Shown: in pieces, positions 4,993 to 52,558 of the stretch
How the letters are laid out: each line of letters opens with the position of its first letter
How positions within the stretch are numbered: position 1 is the stretch's first letter
Assembly: GCF_003790525.1 (NCBI RefSeq)
Contig: NZ_CP033633.1
From: Escherichia coli
GTDB taxonomy: Bacteria; Pseudomonadota; Gammaproteobacteria; Enterobacterales; Enterobacteriaceae
Direction: 5' to 3' (one strand)
Length of the DNA stretch: 64,000 nucleotides
Position numbers and translations under genes: made by a program
The notes under the pieces: model-generated
The model's database searches: none
Seen by the model: the letters and a program-made list of their open reading frames with translations, nothing else
What the model was told of the DNA's origin: nothing

Positions 4993-5637
4993 TCAAAATA
5001 CTTCTGCAACAGGAACACCGGCAACTTTTTCCCACTCTTTAACCCGATACCGGATCATCTGCGGGAAACGTTCCTTGTACTCATATCCACGTGCAGCCAT
5101 GGTGTGCATGGTGTTGGCCAGCGTCCTTGCTGAGATGCCGGAGATCTCAAGAGGAATCATCGGCAGACTCACATAGGTGGTGTGGATTTCCAGCTTGCCG
5201 TCTTCAGCAACTGTTCGGGTGAAGTTGTGAATATCCAGACCAATCACATCCATCACATTGTTTGGATAAATACGCACATACAGCATGGTGCCGTTTTTAA
5301 TGTCGATCCCGAAATAACAACTCTTTGAGAATGACAGTTGCTCGTAATCGCTGGTCGGCGCAAAGGGACTGCTTTCTTTTATCTTCTTAACAACCTGCAG
5401 GATTTTCTTTTTCTTCGCTCTGGTTTTCAGATATAGCCAGAGTAATGGGATTATGAGTAACGTCCAACTTCCATATGCATATATATAATCATATTTAGTT
5501 GAATAGATATCTAGACTTAATGCTGTAAAAGCAATGGCACAAAAAATTAAAAATGGAACTCCAAATAAAAAATAAGCGTTGCGGACAAGGTAATAATATG
5601 CCCACCAGGAAGGATATCTGCTTTTTTGTTCATTCAT
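4993..5637 (-). CDS. membrane protein at the position of entry-exclusion gene excA (downstream of traY)
   Basis: 214 aa, two N-terminal TM segments then a Lys-rich linker and soluble domain; AT-rich N-terminal half; identity as ExcA is by position and size only. Confidence 0.4.
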   Translation of the reverse strand: MNEQKSRYPSWWAYYYLVRNAYFLFGVPFLIFCAIAFTALSLDIYSTKYDYIYAYGSWTLLIIPLLWLYLKTRAKKKKILQVVKKIKESSPFAPTSDYEQLSFSKSCYFGIDIKNGTMLYVRIYPNNVMDVIGLDIHNFTRTVAEDGKLEIHTTYVSLPMIPLEISGISARTLANTMHTMAARGYEYKERFPQMIRYRVKEWEKVAGVPVAEVF

Positions 5638-5723
5638 AATAAACCTCCATATTCACCTGGTTGTATTTTAATATCACCAGGCGAATATGGCAATGCTTTT
5701 TATTTGTTTTTGATGTTTTTACT

Positions 5724-7889
5724 CTATTGTTTTATTCCATCCTTATCATTCCTATTAATATTTTTTAGTTTCTCTTCACGAACGCCAGGTGTTCTGCGTA
5801 TATTGGTGTTTCCGCCGGCAATAATATCTTTGACGGAAGAAACCATATTCCCCAGCATATTAACTCCGTCACGTCCGCCCAGGAAATTAATCACATGGTC
5901 TGGCAGATAAGCCTGAAGCGCAAAAACGCCCGCAACCAGTGTGGTACATGCGCGGGCATAAATCATCAAAAATCCCGCCACGCTGAACACGCCTGTTACT
6001 GAACTTACTTGGACATTCATCAGCGCAGCAGCAAACAGTGCATTCAGTATTGTGCCGCCGGCCACGATGGCGACCGATGCAAAAAAGAACCCGAAAACCA
6101 TCAACAGAGGCCTGATCATGCTGTCTATCAGGTAGATGTAACCGTAAGCAGCCCGGCTTCCCCGGTCCTGGCTTGTTCCCAGATGGGTGGCAGCCCACAG
6201 GGGGCCGGCGGCACATCCAATCAGCACGCTGACTATCCAGTTGCCGATGCCGGTCATCCAGAAGATAAACGGAATAAACGGCAGGTAAATGGATAACGAA
6301 AAACCGGCACAGAACAGCAAAAACAGCAGGAAGTAGAGCGGTGGTGCGGAGGCTTCCAGAAAAGCCTTTGCGGCGTCAGATAATCCACTAACGGCATTGA
6401 CCAGTCGACCAAAAATGGAGTTGCTGCCGGCAGAGGAAAGCACCCTGACGGTGGTATAACCCGCCCAGATGGTCTCGGTTGTTACCATTGTGTAATCACC
6501 GATATCCTTCATCTTCAGCAGAGGATTTGCCTGATAGGATGTAGTTCCTGTACTAGAATATACAGTTGCGATTTTATATGTCAGTTTCGTAAAGTCCGGT
6601 GACATTAACTTTATAATTGCACTTTGTGGATCATTTGTATTGGCAGCATATATCTCATCAGAAGATGTTAGATTTCCCAGCGCAGGAGTATATGGTGAGT
6701 TCTGCAACTGTGCCTGGTAAGCTCCTCTGACTTCCTTCAGGAACTCAGTATCTCCGGCTTCGCCCTGCGATGAAACTCCACTCACAGTGGGGGCACGGTC
6801 GGCCAGTTCTGCCAGTCGCTGGTTGGCGGTGGCAAAGGTCTGGTACCAGGCCCCCAGGGCAACCCAGCCGTAGGTGGTCAGGTAGGATTTCAGCTGCTCC
6901 CTGCGCTCAGTTTCTGCGTTATCTGTTGGCAACGCCTTCTGCACCGTTTCTTCATACCGGTTGGCAGCCTTCTGAATACGGCTTTCAATATCCGGCAGGT
7001 TGCCGTTACCCGTGTCGCGCCGGGTCCGGTACGCTGACACAAATTCCTGTGCTGCGCTGTCCAGGTCACGGAGCATGGTATCCATGGCAGACCGTTGTGC
7101 CGTCAGGACTCCCTGATACTCCGTTTCAATGAAGGGATTGAAAAAATAGTCCAGCGCGGACTGGTTGTTGCTGCCATTCCCTTTCACGGTGAGACTCACA
7201 CTCCCGCAGGTGGCACTGCCATTTGAAACGGTGACGGTATACCTGCCGTTCTCTGTCCGTGAGGATTCGCTCATGGGGGGCGTTGATGAACGGGCAGTAC
7301 GGTTAAAGTCATCGAGGCCTGCATTCATGGCGTGTTTGCACAGCGCCATCTCCAGTATTCCCCGTGCTGCCGTGCGGGTGGAGACATGAACTGGCTGTAC
7401 GGTCATTGAATAGCCTTCAGCAATGTTTTCTGCCGCTGTCTGAACCATGATATTGGCGGAACCGATGCCCATGATGGATGCGCCCCACAGCATGACCAGT
7501 TGCGCCAGACTCCAGCCGGAAGCGGTGGGCACAATCATCAAAAATCCACTCACGACACTGAGTATGCCGACGACGTCCCGTCCGTTGTTAAAGACACTGC
7601 CCTGGTGGCCGGTGCGGACAACATGACGGATACCAATAAACAGGAACCAGACTATCCCCATAATGGCGATAATTGCGTTAAACACCATGAACAGGTTGCC
7701 GATAATGGTGTTGCTGCTGGCTGTCAGGGGATTTGTGACCACGTCGCCAAAAATGGTGACCAGTGCCTGGCGCGACAGGTCATCCGGATTGGTGGCGGCG
7801 CTCACAATGTCCTGATAGGTGACGAATGCCTGTGCAGGTACGGCAGCCAGCGCCAGACCCGCACTCAGTGCTCTGGGTATGATTTTCAC
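5724..7889 (-). CDS. traY: conjugal transfer integral membrane protein TraY (DotA-like)
   Basis: 721 aa polytopic membrane protein with signal peptide, last large gene of the tra array; size and position match R64 TraY. Confidence 0.7.
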   Translation of the reverse strand: MKIIPRALSAGLALAAVPAQAFVTYQDIVSAATNPDDLSRQALVTIFGDVVTNPLTASSNTIIGNLFMVFNAIIAIMGIVWFLFIGIRHVVRTGHQGSVFNNGRDVVGILSVVSGFLMIVPTASGWSLAQLVMLWGASIMGIGSANIMVQTAAENIAEGYSMTVQPVHVSTRTAARGILEMALCKHAMNAGLDDFNRTARSSTPPMSESSRTENGRYTVTVSNGSATCGSVSLTVKGNGSNNQSALDYFFNPFIETEYQGVLTAQRSAMDTMLRDLDSAAQEFVSAYRTRRDTGNGNLPDIESRIQKAANRYEETVQKALPTDNAETERREQLKSYLTTYGWVALGAWYQTFATANQRLAELADRAPTVSGVSSQGEAGDTEFLKEVRGAYQAQLQNSPYTPALGNLTSSDEIYAANTNDPQSAIIKLMSPDFTKLTYKIATVYSSTGTTSYQANPLLKMKDIGDYTMVTTETIWAGYTTVRVLSSAGSNSIFGRLVNAVSGLSDAAKAFLEASAPPLYFLLFLLFCAGFSLSIYLPFIPFIFWMTGIGNWIVSVLIGCAAGPLWAATHLGTSQDRGSRAAYGYIYLIDSMIRPLLMVFGFFFASVAIVAGGTILNALFAAALMNVQVSSVTGVFSVAGFLMIYARACTTLVAGVFALQAYLPDHVINFLGGRDGVNMLGNMVSSVKDIIAGGNTNIRRTPGVREEKLKNINRNDKDGIKQ

Positions 7890-7961
7890 GATAACTCCGG
7901 AACCGAAGGGATGCAGGGCATCAGCCTCCGGAATGAGGAAAAGGAATTGCAGACCGGACGG

Positions 7962-8531
7962 TCAGTACTGCCGGTGGGTAATGGCCAGCCATGTGGCCTG
8001 TTTCCAGCCGTGCCGGGCCTGCAGGTAATCGGGGAAGGTGCCCTGTTCGTCCTCGCTGACCCGCCGTTCATTCAGTTGCCAGAGGCGGTATGACACAATC
8101 AGGGTTTTTGAGGCACACAGTGCTGCAATGGCACTCATCAGTAACAGGCAGGCCAGTATACGTATCAGGGTGATGGCCGGAAGCGCTGTGGCAGCAAGGG
8201 CCATGCCGCACAGCAGAAGTACCGGTATCATCATCAGCCAGAATCCTGTCCGCCAGAACATCCTGCGACGTCGCAGACGCCGATCCAGTTCGTTGACCGT
8301 AAGGCCGCTGGCCCTGACGGCTTCTTCCCAGGTCATACAGACCGGACTCTCCGGTTGCCGGTCGGGCATGAGGCGCTTCAGGCGCGTTTTATGCTGGCCC
8401 AGCATATGGCGGCAGCTGCGCAGCATCCACCGGGTTTCGGCCAGTGGTGCGAACAGGTTTATCCCGATGTCACCGATGCGGCGGAGACGGGGGGCCGGTT
8501 TTTTTTTGTCGGTGCTGTTGTCGTCTTTCAT
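7962..8531 (-). CDS. traX: conjugal transfer membrane protein (TraX by position)
   Basis: 189 aa, basic N-terminus then two TM segments; position between traW and traY. Confidence 0.45.
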   Translation of the reverse strand: MKDDNSTDKKKPAPRLRRIGDIGINLFAPLAETRWMLRSCRHMLGQHKTRLKRLMPDRQPESPVCMTWEEAVRASGLTVNELDRRLRRRRMFWRTGFWLMMIPVLLLCGMALAATALPAITLIRILACLLLMSAIAALCASKTLIVSYRLWQLNERRVSEDEQGTFPDYLQARHGWKQATWLAITHRQY

Positions 8532-9733
8532 CTTACGCTCCCCTGGCTCATGGCCTGTGACAGTTCACCGAGACGCTGTCCGTAATACTGTCGTGCCGCC
8601 AGTGCCAGCTGCTGCCCGGCGATAACATTACCCTGGCGTATCTGCTCTTTCAGGTCGTTCATCTGCCAGTTCAGCAGGGCGGTAGTGCGCAGCAGTTCAC
8701 GGAGAAGGTTATCGCCTTCCATGCCCTGCAGATCCTGCTGCCAGTCGGTGTTTGCATAGCGTCTGCCGGCTTCAAAGGCCTCAAACTCCCGCTGGCTCAT
8801 GTGACCACGGGTGCGGGCCTCTGATGATGCGGTACGGTCAAAATATGCCGCAGCGGATGGTGACTGCAGGGCTTCAGTCAGTGCTCCACGGGTGGCCTCA
8901 TTAGGGGTACTGTCAGCTATCAGTGACAGTTGCGGATGAGAGGCGGCATCGATGATGCCGTTGTATTCATTCTGCAGGCCCACATACGTGCGCCCGGTCT
9001 GTGTTCCCACTTCACCTTTCCCCGGGGCACGACCCGCTGACGGTCTGGCGGTGTTTTTCATATAAGCCGTGGCGGCATCAATCTGTTTCTGATCCCAGGT
9101 GAGGGCGGCAGGGGTATCTGCTGTGCCTGCGCCCTGATAGAGCGATCGTACCTGGCTGTCTCCGCCCGGCAGATCGCCCACGGCAGGGCAGACATCGGTT
9201 CCGCCAAAGCGGGCATACTCCGCTTCCGTGCAGTAACCGGCGTGGATGCCGGCACTGTCATACGCCTCGCGGACCGGGGAGTCTGCAGCCCGGGAGAGAC
9301 GTTCCCGGATGGGTTTACTGCTGACCCCTCCCCCCTGACTCAGACGTGCCGCTGCAGACGCTGCTGCCCGGCGGCTTTCTGCTGCAATGCCGGACGCGGA
9401 TTCACTGCAGATGGAGTCCGGCACGCTGAAGCTTTTCCTGGCCTCCTCGAGGCGGTGTGTTTCATTACTGAATATCATCTGCTGACGGGTGGCCTGCCCG
9501 TCCTGGGCAATGACGGTGGCCAGTTTTTCTGAGTTCTGGGTGATGGCTGTGCCGGTGGCCGTCTGCATACGGACCATCTCTGCCATCACGCCCTGAATGG
9601 CGGCCAGCTCCGGCATGATCTGTCGGGTGACCGGCTGACTGGACACAACATTCACAGAGTAGGCATGGGTGGCAGGGATAACCGCACAGCCTATCAGGAG
9701 TGCAAGCAGTGTGGTTGCAGATTGTCTTTGCAT
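8528..9733 (-). CDS. traW: conjugal transfer lipoprotein (TraW by position); start taken at internal ATG 9733
   Basis: Track ORF 8528..9838; internal Met gives signal peptide MQRQSATTLLALLIGCAVIPATHA and about 401 aa. Confidence 0.5.
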   Translation of the reverse strand: MQRQSATTLLALLIGCAVIPATHAYSVNVVSSQPVTRQIMPELAAIQGVMAEMVRMQTATGTAITQNSEKLATVIAQDGQATRQQMIFSNETHRLEEARKSFSVPDSICSESASGIAAESRRAAASAAARLSQGGGVSSKPIRERLSRAADSPVREAYDSAGIHAGYCTEAEYARFGGTDVCPAVGDLPGGDSQVRSLYQGAGTADTPAALTWDQKQIDAATAYMKNTARPSAGRAPGKGEVGTQTGRTYVGLQNEYNGIIDAASHPQLSLIADSTPNEATRGALTEALQSPSAAAYFDRTASSEARTRGHMSQREFEAFEAGRRYANTDWQQDLQGMEGDNLLRELLRTTALLNWQMNDLKEQIRQGNVIAGQQLALAARQYYGQRLGELSQAMSQGSVR

Positions 9734-13300: not shown

Positions 13301-13355
13301 GTGACAGGGTACTGATACAGTCTTCAATGGCAAAAATAATGCGGTTGATATTCAT
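10311..13355 (-). CDS. traU: conjugal transfer ATPase TraU (DotO/IcmB-like)
   Basis: 1014 aa, same length as R64 TraU; large uninterrupted ORF with strong coding character. Confidence 0.8.
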   Translation of the reverse strand: MNINRIIFAIEDCISTLSRYSVSAFFPDYCDLHTVIGLDQQDRERRPWLKAPYIATTKQGYYLSVFEISGALKEMDENPDLTAPGTLESLITALAERMNTAYKNTGHKISFVFERDPERGRDEIEAMLLPQRKSIARTGILLQDVLDEKVTTLTPWLVRERCWLTVWSSEELLSRTDRKDHQTRIRKLAEHAPPARFAQDPWRWTLSALKIRHDAFLDTLEQALTHDSDGLLVRLMDIHEVGREIRRQLERNSTPAVWQPHLPEDARPAGWRQGEDTSVFHAPSLNLQLFTTQPETHGSLIKAGDLWHGMVAITLPPQNLRTFNQLVRDVPRAIPWRIRMDLMPGGMKALGVKKTLLTYSSFISPLRPMYDSVMMLNDINKHDPVCIMTIVATTWGNSREVCTRNQALLKSALEGWGVCGTTTTFGDPRRAWVNTVLAASHGSGPVPLYPPLSHALSLFPLNRAGSVWRGQGNLMMHTEDGSAWEVALASSQQNKHTELTPGAPGLGKSVLINALSEIQIASAQKNLPFIAYIDKGFSAQGLVQLIRDSLPEQRKDEAVGIILSNDPEHTRNLFDVMYGAKKPATPEKNFMVSVLCALCVDTGTGQPCNPGDTRQIISNLVDLAFREYGENNPRLYRAGTEPLVDLALEESGIAEQHDAGWWNAATWFEIRDMLHMAGNIPAAQRAHYQAMPLLAEMSALLGQPSIRDVFGTVQRDNSAELLLDYIRRALDQGHSDYPMMSGCTRFMLSPDTRVVAVDLNNVAGDKTPAGRLRTGIMYLLAGQIAGGDFVLPQYQEEIRKNLDPRYHEVIFRRIEQLDQEVKTKVYDELHNAKGINFIWEALDTQELEQRKFGIRTVLSTQLLQDYPPAVLKSANTLWLLRYRPDEIPFLRDNFGVPEVTLRRFLKMPEGAAPDGSGVPVLAVFRVKNGTLARILKFTLGPLELWALNSSPKDSALRRALTQELGSLRARQILAENFPRGSATSLIEHRARTHDSENVIHDLAAELIRKQGYHL

Positions 13356-13530: not shown

Positions 13531-13914
13531 TCAGCGTAGTGAATTTACTGGCGGATAAGTGATTTTATTAATATGTACAACAATACATTTTCTTCTTTCA
13601 TTTCGTATAAATACAGGGGGGATATAAAAGAAACGGAGACTGCAGAGACAGAGATGCAGTTGTTTTCCCCGTTTCCTTAATGAAAATTCAGTCAGGGGTG
13701 TGGCCGGATAATTATGCCGGGCGCTTAATTCCCTGTTGAACTGAAGTATTCCGGCAATATTCAGCAGTATGCCGGCCAGCCTGCCGTCATCATCCCGAAG
13801 GAACCGACGGAGTAGCCGGTGCTCTTCTTTGGCGGTACTGTCAGCTTTTCCGGCCAGGTGTGCGTGGATGAGTGTTATAAGCGTCTCCGGGGATATGCGG
13901 TGAATTTTCATCAT
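13531..13914 (-). CDS. hypothetical protein in tra array, 127 aa
   Basis: ORF overlapping the next gene by 4 bp; its C-terminal third runs into AT-rich intergenic sequence, so the true extent is uncertain. Confidence 0.3.
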   Translation of the reverse strand: MMKIHRISPETLITLIHAHLAGKADSTAKEEHRLLRRFLRDDDGRLAGILLNIAGILQFNRELSARHNYPATPLTEFSLRKRGKQLHLCLCSLRFFYIPPVFIRNERRKCIVVHINKITYPPVNSLR

Positions 13915-44514: not shown

Positions 44515-45585
44515 TTATTCCTGTGGACGATCTGTCACCCGCAGCAGACATTGTGCTGTGCTGGTCCGGGCATACAGCGGTTTTTCCACCGGGGTGTAGA
44601 GTGCAAATAGCTGTTCCAGCGCCTGGCGGAAACTGCCGGTGAAAACCAGAGGAGCATCGATGCTGTAGTTGACAGGTGTTTCCCAGCGCAGTGTCCATGT
44701 GCCGTGCGGGCATTTTTCGGATGATGTCCAGCGGGCCAGTCCGTCTTTCAGGGTGGTCCCCTTTTCCATTTTCCACTGCCGTGGCGGTATGACCTTCTGC
44801 GGTGGTGTCACTACCGGTTTCGTGGCCACCGGGGCTGGCGTGGTTGTTCTGCTCTCTGGTGTTCCGGATGTCCCGGTGGTGGTCTGAGCCCGGGATACGC
44901 TGACGGCAGGTGGTACCTGTGCCTGGTCTGCCGCTGTTCCGGTTGTGCTCCTGAACGGATTACGTGGTGTGTCCGCTGTTTTCTGTGAACCCTGCGGTGT
45001 CGTGACGTCGACCGGCGGTGTTGCAGAGGTCGTGACAGTCAGTATTTTCCTGTTCCAGTCCATATGTCCGTAAAGCTGCTGGCCGGCCAGCAGCGCATTC
45101 AGTGCCCGGTGCCACTGGTCATTAACGGACCAGGAAGGGAGGCGTTTGTTCAGTGCCGGTGTGGCGGCATTCTGCTGGCGGAACTGCCAGCCGGTTGGCA
45201 GCAGCTGGCGTATCCAGTCACTGACGGTGCGCTGACGTGCTTCACGTAAATAAACGACGGATGAGGGACCGGGCTTACCGGTCATAACCAGTGCAGACAG
45301 CGGTGTGGCCTGAAGAAGCGGGCGGGGAGGCAGTGCGGTACTCTGGCTGCTGACAGTGGTTGAGGGTGTCGCCGTTGTTGTCGGACGGGGCGGTGTCACA
45401 GGGCGGGTCACCGGTGGCGGAAGCAGACGTTTTTGCGTATGGGTGATAATGGCAGCACTTTCGCGAATTTGTCCGTCGACGAACACCAGAGCCGGAGGCG
45501 TGGTATCCGGAACAGGCGTGGCATTAAATGCCGTACAGCCGCTGAGTAATGACGGCAGAAGGAGTGTCAGTGATTTCTTTTGCAT
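44515..45585 (-). CDS. pilL: pilus assembly lipoprotein PilL
   Basis: 356 aa; lipobox LLSGCTAF; Pro/Thr-rich linker; size matches R64 PilL. Confidence 0.6.
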   Translation of the reverse strand: MQKKSLTLLLPSLLSGCTAFNATPVPDTTPPALVFVDGQIRESAAIITHTQKRLLPPPVTRPVTPPRPTTTATPSTTVSSQSTALPPRPLLQATPLSALVMTGKPGPSSVVYLREARQRTVSDWIRQLLPTGWQFRQQNAATPALNKRLPSWSVNDQWHRALNALLAGQQLYGHMDWNRKILTVTTSATPPVDVTTPQGSQKTADTPRNPFRSTTGTAADQAQVPPAVSVSRAQTTTGTSGTPESRTTTPAPVATKPVVTPPQKVIPPRQWKMEKGTTLKDGLARWTSSEKCPHGTWTLRWETPVNYSIDAPLVFTGSFRQALEQLFALYTPVEKPLYARTSTAQCLLRVTDRPQE

Positions 45586-45706
45586 AGAATATAATCCGGT
45601 ATATTACGGGTTACGGTATAAGACAGGTGGCGGGTAACTGGCCTTCAGATGAATATCATTTCATCGGGTTATTGATGATGAACCTTAAAAATCACAGAGG
45701 TGATGC

Positions 45707-46102
45707 ATGATAAAGAAGATGTGGCGTTATTTACGGCAAATTGATAAGTATGAATTGCTGCAGCAGGTGATTTCAGTACATGAAGTGGAACTGCTCAGGA
45801 AAATGATGACAGATTCATTATTAGGGTGCTCAGTAGGATATGTGTTTTCGAAAATACTGAAGATATTCTTTCTGCGTTTTATTCAGTCTGAGGGGGGATG
45901 GGATATTATTACTTACTTTTTGTGGATGCTGGGAATACTTATTGTCATGGCCGCGCTGTTTATCTGGATGTGCGCCGCTGTATGCTATGAGCTTCGGATG
46001 TATAAAATAAAAACAGGAAGGGAGAACGATATATTATTCTGGGTGTGGATTCTTCTTTTTGATGTCGCGGTTGTATTTTCGCTGGGTAATGTTATCTGGT
46101 GA
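45707..46102 (+). CDS. hypothetical membrane protein, 131 aa, AT-rich
   Basis: Plus-strand ORF in an AT-rich block upstream of pilL; two or three TM segments. Confidence 0.3.
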   Translation: MIKKMWRYLRQIDKYELLQQVISVHEVELLRKMMTDSLLGCSVGYVFSKILKIFFLRFIQSEGGWDIITYFLWMLGILIVMAALFIWMCAAVCYELRMYKIKTGRENDILFWVWILLFDVAVVFSLGNVIW

Positions 46103-46534
46103 TTATGGGTTCAGTGACATATGGAAAAAGATAAGTGCGAACATTGATACTGAAGAATAATATATCCAGGAATAGAAAAACATGAATTTCGGAGATGGTT
46201 TCTTCTGTCTCCTGTTTTTCAGGGGAGTCTGTGGGTCAAATGTTATCAGCGTCATTAAAGGATACCCTTTCATAAGAATAAAAATATAGACGCATAAATG
46301 AGCGTAAAGAGGTAACCTGTCCTGCCAGAACAGAATCATCATGATGACGGCAAGATGAAATGTCGTTACATTGATATAATAAAACCAGCTGTATTTACGC
46401 AGATACTGTTGGATATTCACGCTGTCAGCATGCGGTTCTGGTGAACAATTTATGCAAAAACAGAAGAAAGAAATGATGATGAACACGGTCAGAGTGACCG
46501 GTAATACAGTCACAAGCAGAAAGAGTATGGACAT
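46103..46534 (-). CDS. hypothetical polytopic membrane protein, 143 aa, AT-rich
   Basis: Converges on the preceding ORF with zero spacing; could alternatively be a divergent PilK-like gene. Confidence 0.3.
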   Translation of the reverse strand: MSILFLLVTVLPVTLTVFIIISFFCFCINCSPEPHADSVNIQQYLRKYSWFYYINVTTFHLAVIMMILFWQDRLPLYAHLCVYIFILMKGYPLMTLITFDPQTPLKNRRQKKPSPKFMFFYSWIYYSSVSMFALIFFHMSLNP

Positions 46535-46606
46535 AAAAATATCTCCGTCAGGATAGTGTGATTATTCCTTTATGGTTCCATAACCCGGCGTAGCTCCGTC
46601 GACTGG

Positions 46607-46849
46607 TTATAATTTTATCCGGGACCTGGCTTTAAGGGGTAATGCCACCTCTTTCCATTCACTACAGCTTCCGGGAATACGTTCTGTGCGTCGTATTATT
46701 CGTGTGTTCTGGCATACAATAATCAGGGCATTGTCTGCCGTCTGAAATGGCATTATAGCGATGTTTATATCTTCTGTTGCAGGAATATAACTGACTTTCT
46801 TTTCACATGTATTGGTGTATATGACAACTCTGAATTTTTCTGCGGACAT
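46607..46849 (-). CDS. small hypothetical protein, about 80 aa, downstream of flotillin gene
   Basis: Internal ATG at 46849 with AGAGGA 8 nt upstream (track ORF 46607..46924). Confidence 0.3.
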   Translation of the reverse strand: MSAEKFRVVIYTNTCEKKVSYIPATEDINIAIMPFQTADNALIIVCQNTRIIRRTERIPGSCSEWKEVALPLKARSRIKL

Positions 46850-46929
46850 TTTCAATCCTCTTTTAAGCCAGAATATCCCGTGAGGGCATTCTTTGTGAAA
46901 AAGATGCCGGAAAAATTCCGGCACGGGGA

Positions 46930-48624
46930 TTAAACCTGTTGTGGTTCTGAGTTATCCGGAGTGGTTACCGGTTCGCTGACATCCGGAACCTTTTCCGGGG
47001 CAGGCATGACCAGTGGACGTGTCAGGGCTGTAAGTCCTTCACCGGATAAACCCACCTCTTTCAGCAGGGAGTCGATGAGCGGAGCCTGTGTACGGTAAGC
47101 CAGAGCGGCGGTTACTGCCTGTTCAGCGAGATTTCCGCCACTTATGTCGGTTGTTGCTGTTTTACCGCGGGTAACACCGCCATTCAGACCATCCACCTGA
47201 ATGATTTTAATACCGTCAATGGATTTCATTGGTTCTGTGGACTTCTCTATGACGGCAGGTAATGCATCCAGCAGGGCAAGACGGAAGCGGAGGCTGGTCT
47301 GCTCATCCGAAAGCACGTTAATGGCATCGTTCAGTGCGCGCTGTGCTTCTGCTTCTGCCAGACCTTTCTGACGGGTGGCCTCCGCCAGTTCAATAATTGC
47401 TGCTGCCTGGAGTTCGGCTGCTTCTTTTTCAGCCTGTGCGCGAACCGTCAGTTCAACCGCTTTCGTTTCAGCTTCCTGAGCAGCAGCAATCAGGGCAACC
47501 TGTTTGGTACGGCCGGCCTCTGCAGTCTGGCGGGTGGTTTCCACATCCTGCTGGGCCTGTACGGCCTCAGCCAGTGCTTTACTTGCCCGGGCTTCTGCCT
47601 GTGACTGCTCTTCCGATTTTGCCGCCACGGCAATGGCTCTGGCCTGGCTGGCGATTTCGGTTGCCTGCTGTTGTTCAATTTCCCGTATGGCCACTTCCCG
47701 TTCGGCTTCGACCTGGCGGGTACGCACTATCTGCTGTCGTTCGATTTCGGCTTCCTCTATCTTACGTTCAGCCAGAATTCGCGCGGATTCTGCTTCACGA
47801 CGTCGTTCAGCTTCAATAGCAGCAATACTGGCACTCTGCTCTGCCGTACGGGTTTTTACCCGTTGTTGTTGCTCCAGAGTCATGAAGGCTTCCTGCTGTT
47901 CAATCTCCAGACGTCGGGAGAGTGCATCCCGGTTTTTTTCCCTGATGGCCACTTCAACATCCTGCTCAACTTCGTTGCGTTCGCGGCGACGACGTTCTGT
48001 TTCCTGGGTCAGAAGGGTCAGGCCTTCAGCATCAAAGGCATTGTCAGGATTAAAATGTACCCGTGCAGTCTGGTTGAAACTTGTCAGCGACACACTTTCA
48101 AGCTCCAGACCGTTTTTGGATAAGTCTTCCGCAACGGTGTTCTGCACACCCTGAACAAAGTTCTCGCGGGCATCCTGTAAATCCTGCATGCTCATTCTGG
48201 CCGCCGTGGCCCGTAGGGCATCAACAAATTTATCCTCGACCAGACTACGCAGATCTTCAGGTGTGAGCGTGCGTTGTCCCAGCGTCTGGGCTGCAGTGGA
48301 TATTCCTTCGGCTGATGGTTTTACCCGAAGAAAAAAGGCAACGGCAACATCAACACGCATGCGGTCGCGGGTTATGAGACTTTCAGCCGCTGCACGACTG
48401 ACTTCCAGCTTCAGGGTGTTCATGTTGACGGGAATTGTTTCGTGAAAAATGGGCATAACAATTGCACCGCCACTCATTACCACTTTTTGGCCTCCCAGAC
48501 CTGTGCGGACAAAGGCCTGCTCTGCCGATGCCCGGCGGTACAGGCGGGCAAATATCAGCCCGATAACGAACAGGGTGAGGACCAGCGCTATAACGGTAAA
48601 CAACCATCCCGGAAGATTAAACAT
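46930..48624 (-). CDS. flotillin-like SPFH/band-7 protein (YqiK-like)
   Basis: 564 aa; N-terminal TM, SPFH-like domain, then long Ala/Glu/Arg/Gln-rich coiled coil; paired with an upstream NfeD-like gene. Confidence 0.8.
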   Translation of the reverse strand: MFNLPGWLFTVIALVLTLFVIGLIFARLYRRASAEQAFVRTGLGGQKVVMSGGAIVMPIFHETIPVNMNTLKLEVSRAAAESLITRDRMRVDVAVAFFLRVKPSAEGISTAAQTLGQRTLTPEDLRSLVEDKFVDALRATAARMSMQDLQDARENFVQGVQNTVAEDLSKNGLELESVSLTSFNQTARVHFNPDNAFDAEGLTLLTQETERRRRERNEVEQDVEVAIREKNRDALSRRLEIEQQEAFMTLEQQQRVKTRTAEQSASIAAIEAERRREAESARILAERKIEEAEIERQQIVRTRQVEAEREVAIREIEQQQATEIASQARAIAVAAKSEEQSQAEARASKALAEAVQAQQDVETTRQTAEAGRTKQVALIAAAQEAETKAVELTVRAQAEKEAAELQAAAIIELAEATRQKGLAEAEAQRALNDAINVLSDEQTSLRFRLALLDALPAVIEKSTEPMKSIDGIKIIQVDGLNGGVTRGKTATTDISGGNLAEQAVTAALAYRTQAPLIDSLLKEVGLSGEGLTALTRPLVMPAPEKVPDVSEPVTTPDNSEPQQV

Positions 48625-48650
48625 AGTGAGAACCTCTGTATATGTCGGGA

Positions 48651-49271
48651 TTAAAGAACATCCGGCCAGGGATTCAGTTCGCCCAGCCAGCGGGAACCGG
48701 AAAGACGGCAGACAATAATCACTTTGTCTCCTCGTCTGAATTCTTTCCCGGCCTCCGGCTCCAGCAACAGGTAATGAACCTGCCCGAAGCGGTCTGTGAA
48801 GCGACCTTCACAGGGGGAACCCGCCACTGCGTGATAACCGGTGATGGTGGCCATACAGCCGATGAATGCCTCCTCGGTGAGCGCCGTTGTTTCATCACGG
48901 GGTAACCAGGGGGCAATCAGTCTGCCGGTGCGGTGTACGAGAGGACATGTCAGCAGCAGGCAAAGTGGTGTAAGGAGAATGTTCGGGGCAGGAGCCTGCA
49001 GCAGATGAATAATAAGACCCTGCAGGAGAATGCCGGATATACCAAAAAAACCTGCCAGCATACAGAGGACGATCAGCAGGGGGATCCGTCCGATGTTCAG
49101 CCAGTCCAGCGCCTCTCCTGTCAGCCCCTCCGGTAAATCAGGTGTATCCATAGCTGAAGAGAGGGAGTGTCCGCAGAGCAGGGCGATAAGTTCAGCGATA
49201 CCAGTAAGCAGAACAAAAGTCAGGGCTGCCAGATAGGGTGCGTTATACGCGGTAAGTAACGCCAGTGTCAT
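48651..49271 (-). CDS. NfeD-like membrane protein (YqiJ-like)
   Basis: 206 aa; polytopic N-terminal region plus C-terminal soluble OB-like domain; immediately upstream of the flotillin gene. Confidence 0.65.
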   Translation of the reverse strand: MTLALLTAYNAPYLAALTFVLLTGIAELIALLCGHSLSSAMDTPDLPEGLTGEALDWLNIGRIPLLIVLCMLAGFFGISGILLQGLIIHLLQAPAPNILLTPLCLLLTCPLVHRTGRLIAPWLPRDETTALTEEAFIGCMATITGYHAVAGSPCEGRFTDRFGQVHYLLLEPEAGKEFRRGDKVIIVCRLSGSRWLGELNPWPDVL

Positions 49272-49537
49272 TTTTCCTCCTGTGGCAGGTCAGTCAAACA
49301 ACATTATGGCGTGAAGCTTCCGCTTCTTTAATTGTCAGAAGAAGCATATCGTCAGTCATCAGAAGACAAGGGGATGTCTGCAGGAGGGGATGATAACAAC
49401 AGAAGCCTCACGCCGGAATGCGCTTTATGACAACCGGAGAGGACGGATAATCAAAAATGGGACATCCACATCAGCAAACCGCGATTTGCGAAAAAAAGTC
49501 AGCGGAGAGTGGCTGCCGTTGTGGCTGTCCCGGTATT

Positions 49538-50203
49538 TCAGTGTAACAGGTGATTGCTGTGATCTATGCCCCATTCGGCTTTCGGTAAACCTGAATGCCC
49601 CACATGAAGAATGCGTGACAGCATGTTTCTGCCGCTGCCGTTCAGGCTGCATTCGCGTCCGTGCGCGAGTATAAAACCTTCATCCCGGAATATATCTTCC
49701 ACTTCTGAAGATTCGAGGGATGCCGGATGAATTAATGAAAATGCCACCGGTCTGAGCATTCTGCCCGTGGTGGAAAAGGTGTCTCTGGTACTGTTCAGCT
49801 GCAGGATATGACGTTTACCTGTTTGCGCACGGGAAAGTGTCTCACTCAGCAGCTGGTCGTTCCATGCGCACGTGCCAATCTGCCATCCCAGACTTCTGCA
49901 CGCGGAAAGAGCCGAGCGGAAGCGGTACAGGTCGTATAATGCTGCGTTATTGCCACTTTCCAGCAGTGATTTCAACGTATTTGCTACCGGTATGTCCGTA
50001 TTGGTGGCCAGCAGTTTTCGCAGAGTCGTAAACTCTTCTGCCATTCCTCTGAACTCGCGCATCTGACGGGCAGTGTCAAGCCAGTTCAGCAGGTAACGCC
50101 GGCGACGCCGTTCGTTGTTTATGTTGTCCGGGGCGGTGGAGAGTGCTTCGAGCATATTCTCCAGTAACAGAATGACAGGGTTTTCCTGGGATAGAATGGT
50201 CAT
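49538..50203 (-). CDS. hypothetical protein, 221 aa
   Basis: First ORF downstream of the NusG-like gene; no family recognised. Confidence 0.4.
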   Translation of the reverse strand: MTILSQENPVILLLENMLEALSTAPDNINNERRRRRYLLNWLDTARQMREFRGMAEEFTTLRKLLATNTDIPVANTLKSLLESGNNAALYDLYRFRSALSACRSLGWQIGTCAWNDQLLSETLSRAQTGKRHILQLNSTRDTFSTTGRMLRPVAFSLIHPASLESSEVEDIFRDEGFILAHGRECSLNGSGRNMLSRILHVGHSGLPKAEWGIDHSNHLLH

Positions 50204-50343
50204 AAAGGCGTCCTGAAAAAATGCCCGACAGCCGCTCTCCGTACACCCTCAGGTGTCACCGGTGCCGGGCATTGTGGAAACAGAAGGGAAAAAAATCCCG
50301 GCCATAAAGGCCGGGAAAAGTCGTCAAATTAAGACAGCAATTT

Positions 50344-51051
50344 TCATGTCAACGCTCCGTCATCAGATACCAGGTGCAGGAGCAGGGCGATCCTCGACTC
50401 CGGCAGAGGCTGTGCATCAAGCCGGAGGAGGTACTGGTAACGCGCTTTTGTCAGCCAGAGGGTGGAGGCAGCATCCAGCTCCTCCCTGGCTGCCGGATTG
50501 AGCGCAGGATCCGGGTACACTTTCATTAAAGACTGAACGATATCCTCCCTGACGGTTTTGATTTCACCGGCCATTTTCACGAAGCCCAGAAAGGCACTGT
50601 GACGGCGCAGGTGAGTGAAAGCGTGGCGTTCGGGGTCTGCTTTCAGAAAGAAGTAACCGGGAAACACGGCGTGTATATGACGACGGTAACCACAGACTTT
50701 ATCCGTGCGGCGGACCTTTTTCAGTATCAGGGGTGTCCAGGGAAGGACGTGTTGTTCGGAAAGCCAGGAAAAGAGATGTTCGCGGTTTTTGCCGGCAGGG
50801 ATGTACTGTGCCAGATACCAGTTGCGTTGATGTAATTCACTGATATTCAAAATCCGGAACGCTCCGCGAAAATCGATCCCCGCAGGGGGGCTTCGATGTT
50901 GTTGTGAACGGCGAATACATAAAGCATGTGTCGGAAACAGCGGCTGACCCACGTTCAGCCCGGCCTGCAGTTCTGACAGGCACATGCACTGTGCACTCTT
51001 GTTAGCCTTGTGGACGGTTTCGAGGCGGGCGAAAACCGACAACTCCTGCAA
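50344..51051 (-). CDS. NusG/RfaH-family transcription antitermination factor paralog (ActX/TraB-like)
   Basis: NGN-domain alignment by eye to RfaH (WYLAQY vs WYLLYC; VFPGYFFLKADPE vs LFPNYLFVEFDPE); C-terminal domain does not show a KOW motif; real start may be TTG at 50850 (about 169 aa). Confidence 0.6.
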   Translation of the reverse strand: MQELSVFARLETVHKANKSAQCMCLSELQAGLNVGQPLFPTHALCIRRSQQHRSPPAGIDFRGAFRILNISELHQRNWYLAQYIPAGKNREHLFSWLSEQHVLPWTPLILKKVRRTDKVCGYRRHIHAVFPGYFFLKADPERHAFTHLRRHSAFLGFVKMAGEIKTVREDIVQSLMKVYPDPALNPAAREELDAASTLWLTKARYQYLLRLDAQPLPESRIALLLHLVSDDGALT

Positions 51052-51531
51052 ACAGGATTAATGGCTGGCAAATATATTACATAAGGATGTATCTGTGGCA
51101 ATAGTGAATATAAGTAGTTGAATAGATCGTTATATTTGATAAATAAGCGTATTATGCTGATTTGTGTGCAGTGTCTGGAGGATTAGATCGCTTAAAAATT
51201 TTAGGCGATCTCTTCTACTAAAAATGATGAAAAAAACAGCATAAAAGATCGTTTGTGAAATTGTTCATTTTTTGACACAGTTCAAAAAAACGACGCTTTT
51301 TAGGGGGTTAAAGAGGGCAACTGTAACCCTGAGAAATCGTGTCGGCTTTTCAAAGCGGTGGAAAAGGGGTATATTGCGGATCGTTATTCAGTGGCTTTTG
51401 GGATCCTCGCGGTCCGGAAAGCCAGAAAACGGCAGAATGCGCCATAAGGCATTCAGGATGTATGGCAGAAACGACGGCAGTTTGCCGGTGCCGGAAGGCT
51501 GAAAAAAGTTTCAGAAGGCCATAAAGGAAAA

Positions 51532-51582
51532 CCCCCATAATCTTCTCATCGAACTTGGCGGAACGTTAGAAGATTATGGGGG
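51532..51582 (-). ncRNA. candidate antisense copy-control RNA region (CopA/Inc-RNA-like stem-loop in repA leader)
   Basis: Perfect 15-bp inverted repeat CCCCCATAATCTTCT / AGAAGATTATGGGGG with about 21 nt loop, about 100 bp upstream of repA; promoter and 3' end not mapped. Confidence 0.35.
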
Positions 51583-51608
51583 CCTCACAGAATACGGGAT
51601 AAGTATAT

Positions 51609-51650
51609 ATGAAACCGTGTCAGAGATTCAACCCTTCGCAGTGTATTAAC
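51609..51650 (+). CDS. possible repA leader peptide (13 aa)
   Basis: ATG AAA CCG TGT ... TAA ([13 protein letters not shown]) 36 bp upstream of the repA start. Confidence 0.25.
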
Positions 51651-51685
51651 GCACGGCATTCTGTTTCCGCCATAAGCGACAGCTT

Positions 51686-52558
51686 GTGGCGGCCCTGAAC
51701 CAGACCTCATTCACTGAAAGCACATACCGTCAGGTAAAGAACCCGAATCCGGTCTTCACACCCCGTGAAGATGCCGGAACGCTGAAGTTCTGCGAAAAAC
51801 TGATGGAAAAGGCCGTGGGCTTCACCTCCCGTTTTGATTTTGCCGCGCATGTGGCGTATGCCCGTTCGCGCGGCCTGCGCCGGCGTATGCCGCCGGTGCT
51901 GCGCCGCCGGGCGATTGATGCGCTGCTGCAGGGGCTGTGTTTCCACTATGACCCGCTGGCCAACCGCGTGCAGTGCTCCATCACCACGCTGGCCATTGAG
52001 TGTGGTCTGGCGACAGAGTCTGAGGCCGGGAAACTCTCCATCACCCGTGCCACCCGTGCCCTGAAGTTCCTGGCAGAGCTGGGGCTGATGACCTACCAGA
52101 CGGAATACGACCCGACAATTGGCTGTAACATTCCGACCGACATCACGTTCACGCCGGCACTGTTTGCCTCACTCGATATCTCTGAAGAGGCGGTGGCTTC
52201 CGCACGCCGCAGCCGCGTGGAATGGGAAAACAAGCTGCGTAAAAAGCAGGGGCTGGATGCGCTGGGTATGGATGAACTGATAGCGAGAGCCTGGCGTTTT
52301 GTGCGCGAGCGTTTCCGCAGTTACCAGGCAGAGCGCAAGGCCCACGGCATGAAACGTGCCCGCGCTCGCCGTGATGCGGGCCGGACCCGTCAGGACATTG
52401 TCACCCTGGTGAAACGGCAGCTGACGCGTGAAATTGCGGAAGGGCGTTTCCGGGGAAGCCTGGAAACCGTGAAGCGCGAAATCGACCGTCGCGTGAAGGA
52501 GCGCATGATAATGTCGCGGAACAACAACTACACACGGCTGGCCACAGCCTCACCCTGA
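51686..52558 (+). CDS. repA: IncFII-family replication initiator RepA (RepA1)
   Basis: GTG start; translation [50 protein letters not shown] matches my memory of R100-type RepA1 nearly throughout. Confidence 0.9.

Follow-up and report, generated by a model that had tools for sequence, protein, structure and literature searches.

In the window analysed here, a 64,000-nucleotide stretch of the Escherichia coli contig NZ_CP033633.1 (assembly GCF_003790525.1), positions 46607-49271 hold a copy, borne by a conjugative resistance plasmid, of the gene pair yqiJ-yqiK (hereafter yqiJK), encoding an NfeD-like membrane protein and a flotillin of the SPFH family, followed by the first gene of a thin-pilus operon. 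All the genes of the region lie on the minus strand, in the order traB, traC, a gap of 266 bp, yqiJ, a gap of 26 nt, yqiK, a small open reading frame (ORF), a block of low guanine-cytosine (GC) content, pilL, pilM and pilN (Table 1). Sequence comparison identifies the pair as a plasmid-adapted copy of an enterobacterial operon, and as an accessory of long standing in the I-complex IncB/O/K/Z backbone, where it fills the slot between traC and pilI. A preliminary description of the window had drawn a module of NfeD-like, flotillin-like and small-protein genes, placed between a NusG-like regulator gene and pilL and oriented like the transfer genes. Three minus-strand ORFs do fill the interval, and yqiJK, traBC and the pil genes share one strand, but the module lies between traC and pilI. 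The small ORF, which spans 46607-46924 and 105 amino acids (aa) when called mechanically, matches Pfam PilI (3.7e-31): it is the first pil gene and not a third member of the module. Positions are those of the window, and gene identities come from the ORF list and a Pfam scan reported at E≤0.01. Both plasmid genes have good ribosome-binding sites, that of yqiJ being an AGGAGG located 6 nt 5' of the ATG.

Table 1. Genes and sequence features of the yqiJK locus and its surroundings (window positions).
Feature	Position	Strand	Description
yqiJ (plasmid allele)	48651..49271	-	206 aa; NfeD-like inner-membrane protein; Pfam YqiJ_N 1.1e-15, YqiJ_OB 1.3e-14
yqiJ-yqiK spacer	48625..48650	-	26 nt; holds the yqiK ribosome-binding site AGAGG
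yqiK (plasmid allele)	46930..48624	-	564 aa; flotillin/SPFH; Pfam Band_7 1.3e-18, Flot 1.3e-38
traC-yqiJ intergenic leader	49272..49537	-	266 bp; highly conserved
Terminator-like hairpin directly 3' of the yqiK stop, before pilI	46904..46924	-	scan and RNA fold
pilI, first gene of the thin-pilus operon; neighbour of the module	46607..46849	-	80 aa, as annotated by RefSeq in plasmid pE16-3 (99.8% identical)
traC, transfer-gene activator; upstream neighbour	49538..50203	-	named traC in relatives; 37% identical to IncI1 TraC
traB, NusG/RfaH-like transfer regulator	50344..50985	-	Pfam NusG 3.5e-5; weak RfaH and LoaP NCBIfam matches
Strong terminator-like hairpin between traB and traC	50296..50316	-	8 pairs, T7 tail

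The names given to the two proteins in the preliminary description hold. YqiK, a flotillin by its Band_7/SPFH and Flot matches (Table 1), has a hydrophobic stretch at about residues 7-25 (read from the sequence), followed by Band_7 at residues 35-183, a coiled-coil region rich in E, A, Q and R at 200-400, and Flot at residues 402-526. It scores 80.5 bits against the NCBIfam equivalog model of FloT, far under the 700-bit cut-off, and is therefore not a FloT equivalog. YqiJ carries the Pfam domains YqiJ_N and YqiJ_OB. Its AlphaFold (AF2) model, built from a 16-sequence alignment (mean predicted local distance difference test score 81.8), is helical in the N-terminal membrane part (8-122) and ends in a C-terminal barrel of six strands at 140-199, an oligonucleotide/oligosaccharide-binding (OB) fold. 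In Foldseek, NfeD proteins take the top three places among the PDB matches of this model: YbbJ from the QmcA-YbbJ complex (8z5g; 5.7e-5), P. horikoshii 1510-C (3wwv; 8e-4, target TM-score 0.71) and B. subtilis YuaF (2k14). The Pfam NfeD model itself was unmatched in YqiJ at E≤0.01, only YqiJ_N and YqiJ_OB being returned, and yqiJ adjoins the SPFH gene yqiK on the same strand. YqiJ is best described as a protein of the YqiJ branch whose NfeD-like character comes from its predicted fold and its place in the operon and not from the NfeD sequence model. Sequence searches of the PDB with YqiJ and YqiK returned no match to any chain. Long antisense ORFs (140-216 aa, plus strand, 47397-48154) are present inside yqiK; we read them as probable by-products of the repetitive coding sequence of the coiled coil, rich in E, A, Q and R, and not as genes.

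The plasmid pair shares with the chromosomal yqiJ-yqiK operon of E. coli the gene order, the 26-nt spacer, the Pfam architectures and a hairpin after yqiK. It differs in its location, which is a conjugative transfer region, whereas the chromosomal pair lies beside glgS and the ibs toxin genes; in its upstream leader; and in its proteins, which are 81% (YqiK) and 55% (YqiJ) identical to those of K-12. YqiJ and YqiK have been regarded as the FloT/NfeD-like pair of E. coli, in line with the common operon logic of NfeD and SPFH genes (PMC2636767, PMC10434171). QmcA-YbbJ (8z5g) and FloT-YuaF likewise combine an SPFH protein with an NfeD-type OB-fold membrane partner. The resemblance to QmcA-YbbJ is incomplete: the NfeD-like gene comes first in the plasmid pair, whereas qmcA is upstream of ybbJ, and a long flotillin coiled coil together with a Flot domain sets the plasmid YqiK apart from QmcA, which is stomatin-like. 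Known SPFH cages comprise the 24-mer of HflKC, the 26-mer of QmcA with YbbJ and the 44-mer of flotillin (PMC12478178), and by analogy with QmcA-YbbJ and the FloT relatives a cage-forming assembly would be expected for the plasmid YqiK.

We then compared the pair with its chromosomal counterparts in a set of 100,044 species, each represented by a single genome. The best chromosomal orthologues were 78-82% identical for YqiK and 52-63% for YqiJ, the nearest donor candidate being Citrobacter (~82% and ~62%, respectively), and no near-identical donor chromosome was found among these genomes. Between enterobacterial genera, chromosomal YqiK orthologues share 87-99% identity. Neighbour-joining trees, built for YqiJ and for YqiK, place the plasmid pair on a long branch as sister of the whole chromosomal Enterobacteriaceae clade. 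All domains have diverged, most of all the membrane anchor and the C-terminal tail of YqiK and the membrane region of YqiJ. At the DNA level only yqiK aligns with the chromosomal copy (~75%), and in the comparison with K-12 the synonymous divergence (dS) is saturated (2.8), with a ratio of nonsynonymous to synonymous divergence (dN/dS) of 0.048. The GC content of yqiJK (0.51-0.58) is continuous with that of the backbone. A search of 45400-50400 for remnants of insertion sequences (IS), inverted repeats and target duplications returned only short repeats at chance level, and IS-mediated capture was rejected for want of flanking scars. The preliminary description had considered that the module might simply be a chromosomal yqiJK copy captured between IS scars; the lack of such scars, the deep divergence from every chromosomal copy and the purifying selection on the pair all speak against this. 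As far as sequences can tell, yqiJK is an old, diverged plasmid lineage and not a recent chromosomal capture.

Among the plasmid alleles, dN/dS for yqiK is 0.051-0.088, from 29-54 synonymous differences; for yqiJ the ratio is 0.24-0.37, from few changes. These values identify yqiJK as a maintained gene pair under purifying selection and, by that token, a functional one. The leader has a mean column identity of 98% over five plasmids whose traC differs at dS 0.25. Between the window plasmid and p866 of Shigella sonnei, the leader and yqiJK are nearly identical (dS 0.005-0.018; leader 98%), whereas the flanking genes are not (dS 0.25 in traC, 0.33 in pilI and 0.17 in pilL). Such mosaic divergence suggests that lineages have recently exchanged the yqiJK block by recombination.

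The type of the plasmid matters for how this locus is read. The segment 45500-51200 is 99.8% identical to plasmids of chicken E. coli typed as IncK2/Z, MOBP and MPF_I. The control elements of the replicon (51523-51673), ordinary for the I-complex, are a pseudoknot of the Rfam PK-repZ family (177 bits) and, on the other strand, a CopA-like antisense RNA; they lie upstream of repA (51686-52558), whose product belongs to the IncFII_repA family. An Rfam scan of 45400-52000 returned only these replicon control RNAs, plus two sub-threshold matches on the traB-traC hairpin. By sequence, then, the plasmid is IncK2/Z, within the B/O/K/Z cluster of the I-complex. It is not of the R64 type, because its TraC is only ~37% identical to that of IncI1. 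The preliminary description was right that the pair is absent from the R64-type (IncI1) backbone, where an unrelated TraD of 183 aa occupies this position, but R64 was the wrong backbone to compare with: in the plasmid's own cluster the pair is a common backbone element and no peculiar insertion. The IncI1 order is traA-traB-traC-traD-pilI-pilJ-pilK, and the window plasmid lacks traD, pilJ and pilK. In R64 the place of yqiJK, with traC on one side and pilI on the other, is taken by traD, which is likewise encoded on the strand of its neighbours; traD is a positional counterpart and not a homologue. TraD has no Pfam match, and its candidacy as a YqiJ homologue was rejected when a comparison with YqiJ revealed no similarity.

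The pair is widespread in related plasmids. We counted plasmids in PLSDB records, and carriage by genome in 5426 complete E. coli genomes. The yqiJK region is matched by 556 PLSDB records, ~539 records carry TraC at ≥80% identity and 268 encode a full-length YqiK of the plasmid type. An intact pair is present in ~265 of the ~535 related plasmid records and is common in the B/O/K/Z cluster. The carriers of full-length yqiK include IncK2/Z and IncI-gamma/K1 plasmids from E. coli, Shigella sonnei, Klebsiella and Salmonella. Among the complete E. coli genomes, 227 of the 5426 have the plasmid-type pair and all but three (5423/5426) have the chromosomal yqiK, so in this species the plasmid copy always stands beside a chromosomal paralogue. 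An 848-bp contig (stated coverage 0.75) in an assembly of Terrisporobacter mayombei is 99% identical to the 3' end of the plasmid yqiK, and is almost certainly a contamination of this Firmicutes assembly by an E. coli plasmid.

Many related plasmids keep only remnants of yqiJK, and two deletion alleles, counted with junction-spanning queries, recur among them. Type A, found in the IncK2 plasmid pNVI1292, lacks 47413-49495 and 46904-47231 and retains a 181-bp internal piece of yqiK; pilI then follows directly behind traC, and both the leader and the post-yqiK hairpin are gone. Type B, found in p15648-2, lacks 47031-49218 with a break at a short microhomology; it keeps the leader, and its junction creates an in-frame fusion of 47 aa, made of YqiJ residues 1-18 and the last 29 residues of YqiK. 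Type A occurs in 75 records and type B in 96; these 171 are mostly typed as conjugative. Other copies of yqiK are interrupted by IS2 or truncated. The plasmid pNVI1292 carries blaCMY-2, originates from Norwegian retail chicken meat and was recovered from a transconjugant. The sequence NZ_CP026855.1 (84,078 bp) is a 100% match to type B, and its length and coordinates agree with those of pMS7163B, in which the end of traC is at 13353 and the start of pilI at 13844 according to a study by TraDIS (transposon insertions located by sequencing; PMC10286972, Table A). That study measured surface conjugation, for which traB and traC were required (log2 fold change about -5.3), liquid mating being only ~2e-6 (PMC10286972). 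Since pMS7163B carries the type B deletion, plasmids without yqiJK still conjugate on surfaces. For the same reason, the best-studied model plasmid of the B/O/K/Z cluster is uninformative on the function of the pair. In the same data, transposon insertions in pilI and pilK of pMS7163B were enriched after surface conjugation (log2 fold changes of +2.9 and +3.2; PMC10286972, Table A), a hint that transfer output is influenced by the stretch immediately downstream of where yqiJK would lie.

How the pair may be expressed was assessed from the signals around it. A simple consensus scan of the leader found no usable sigma-70 promoter; the only promoter-like match there overlaps the yqiJ start codon. 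A CATAAT with a poor -35 element is located ~30 nt upstream. The traB-traC hairpin folds at -18.1 kcal/mol (z -4.6) and the post-yqiK hairpin at -13.4 kcal/mol (z -3.1). In type A plasmids, the drive for pilI must come from upstream, because the whole leader is missing. The TraB homologue of pESI activates the pil genes (PMC5013300). From the layout of the locus it is plausible that yqiJK is co-transcribed with the transfer genes, as the preliminary description had proposed. The pair would be transcribed by read-through from traB/traC, or under the control of TraB/TraC, together with the pil genes, and the NusG-like TraB would help RNA polymerase to pass both hairpins. Read-through from traBC aided by TraB is probably the simplest model, and the traB-traC hairpin is a candidate site for it. 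We also searched for the RfaH-type ops (operon polarity suppressor) element (GGCGGTAGnnTG) as a loading site of TraB; there was none at the locus, and this candidate was rejected, the window having only two one-mismatch matches elsewhere, fewer than expected by chance.

We propose the following role for the products. By analogy with the solved SPFH complexes, YqiK would form, with YqiJ, a cage on the inner membrane that faces the cytoplasm. The cage would be a dispensable helper while the secretin-containing thin pilus and the type IV secretion system (T4SS) are made, either buffering inner-membrane stress or stabilising membrane complexes, and not an essential component of transfer. The phage shock protein (Psp) response is classically triggered by secretins, a class that includes PilN. 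On the non-mobilizable megaplasmid pSK03 of Rhizobium leguminosarum (5213-8764), a gene for PspA/IM30 is immediately followed by a YqiJ-like OB-fold gene and then by a flotillin gene, an arrangement that links this type of operon to membrane-stress systems. These alphaproteobacterial flotillin operons of megaplasmids have no transfer genes beside them. The flotillin gene of Martelella is preceded by one for a rhodopsin.

Several observations weigh against this proposal. About a third of the related plasmids, successful blaCMY-2 IncK2 lineages among them, have lost the pair through the two deletion alleles, so any benefit of yqiJK must be conditional. The coupling of yqiK to pilI may be weak because of the terminator-like hairpin that separates them. 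The near-identity of the yqiJK block between lineages with differing flanks could reflect recombination rather than function. Mutants of yqiK in E. coli show no phenotype in growth, in adhesion/biofilm or under stress (PMC10434171, PMC2636767), and in Agrobacterium the T4SS needs no SPFH proteins (PMC8656257). We nevertheless hold that the best explanation of the locus as a whole is an old plasmid yqiJK, expressed by transfer-linked read-through, whose products would act as a dispensable membrane-cage helper; this strikes us as reasonably probable.

A larger role in transfer is harder to reconcile with the data. The preliminary description had suggested that a membrane-microdomain scaffold could organise the pilus or the transfer machinery. 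As a required part of transfer such a scaffold is unlikely, given two widespread deletion alleles in conjugative plasmids, including pMS7163B, and the independence of the Agrobacterium T4SS from SPFH proteins (PMC8656257). Were the pair a dedicated organiser of the thin pilus or the T4SS, with a measurable gain in transfer (in liquid mating, for instance), this would fit its place in the transfer region, directly upstream of pilI and on the same strand, and the purifying selection on it. The T4SS of Agrobacterium does sit in detergent-resistant membranes, where type VI secretion system proteins are found as well (PMC8656257), but SPFH mutants of this bacterium keep T4SS function and localisation (PMC8656257). 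Liquid mating by pMS7163B, a plasmid devoid of the pair, is very low and points in the same direction, yet it has no demonstrated link to the deletion, and the plasmid conjugates on surfaces. With deletion alleles in 171 records of mostly conjugative type, pNVI1292 obtained from a transconjugant, and IncI1 plasmids running the same pil/tra machinery without the pair, we judge this unlikely. We find decidedly unlikely the fuller version in which yqiJK is a private membrane-microdomain scaffold of the conjugation apparatus, switched on by TraB/TraC along with the pil genes, with cages distinct from those of the chromosomal YqiK that enclose or stabilise inner-membrane parts of the thin pilus or the T4SS, or shield the donor from membrane stress caused by secretins, and raise transfer in liquid or in the gut.

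The pair could instead be cargo directed at the host, altering its membrane physiology (motility, biofilm, stress, antibiotic tolerance) in ways unrelated to transfer, its position being a historical accident. A study of IncK blaCMY-2 plasmids proposed the plasmid yqiK as a candidate cause of reduced biofilm formation, citing a motility phenotype of yqiK (PMC7824781), but pNVI1292 has only the 181-bp remnant, and if the study used that plasmid type its proposal fails there. The native chromosomal YqiK fused to green fluorescent protein is undetectable, possibly because of low expression (PMC10434171), so an extra, expressed copy could matter, and other megaplasmid flotillin operons occur in metabolic or stress contexts. 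Against this, E. coli SPFH mutants have no adhesion or biofilm phenotype (PMC10434171), and the fixed position in the traBC-pil block across lineages and the conserved leader fit transfer-linked expression better; we see a host-directed role as rather unlikely. That yqiJK is a passenger, a chromosomal pair captured by chance, neutral or costly, and now being lost, would account for the two widespread deletions, for the IS2-interrupted and truncated copies and for the lack of a known yqiK phenotype (PMC10434171, PMC2636767). It is very improbable in view of the low dN/dS (0.05-0.09), reading frames intact in ~265 records, saturated divergence from all chromosomal copies, absence of IS scars, and a block that is near-identical across lineages with diverged flanks, which suggests spread rather than decay. 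Protection against pilus-specific phages, or a part in exclusion, has as its sole support the link of stand-alone SPFH/NfeD modules to phage responses mentioned in the preliminary description, with which a site near pilus genes is compatible. At E≤0.01, PADLOC models matched neither YqiJ nor YqiK, nor the two small ORFs beside them. The pair has no adjacent gene for a nuclease, a protease or another effector, and its products resemble orthologues encoded by a chromosomal operon that is near-universal in E. coli. The suggestion of a phage response thus finds no match among known defence models, and such a role appears exceedingly improbable.

Downstream of pilI, where IncI1 has pilJ/pilK, a variable block of low GC content (0.38-0.42; 45600-46600) precedes pilL. 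Two hydrophobic ORFs abut there at their ends, one of 143 aa (46103-46534, minus strand), which carries no annotation in relatives, and one of 131 aa (45707-46102, plus strand). Other B/O/K/Z lineages have different ORFs (115, 295 and 142 aa) at this site. None of the block's ORFs, in the window or in these lineages, had a Pfam match, and the two in the window had no NCBIfam or PADLOC match either.

That the pair exists on plasmids is already known: it is annotated in hundreds of plasmid records, and the plasmid yqiJ/yqiK are named in passing in a figure legend (PMC8549364) and in one discussion (PMC7824781). We found no dedicated study of the plasmid yqiJK in the literature, and the TraDIS paper on the I-complex, whose model plasmid lacks the pair, is silent on it (PMC10286972). 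What is new is the recognition of a distinct, constrained plasmid lineage, of the positional replacement of traD, and of two deletion alleles defined by their junctions. Among the flotillins of Gram-negative bacteria, that of E. coli has given few leads to its function, yqiK mutants being essentially without phenotype and the native protein barely detectable (PMC10434171). If yqiJK shows no effect, it will be one more dispensable accessory gene pair, and the practical lesson will be not to interpret B/O/K/Z plasmids by the R64 map. If the pair does prove to be a private scaffold of conjugation, the plasmid would become the first conjugative one for which a flotillin of its own has been demonstrated, and the flotillins of E. 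coli would have their first clear client. A diverged flotillin copy is kept under purifying selection at a fixed site of the transfer region in hundreds of resistance plasmids of clinical and agricultural importance, and its two natural, clean deletion alleles offer a simple experimental handle on flotillin function.

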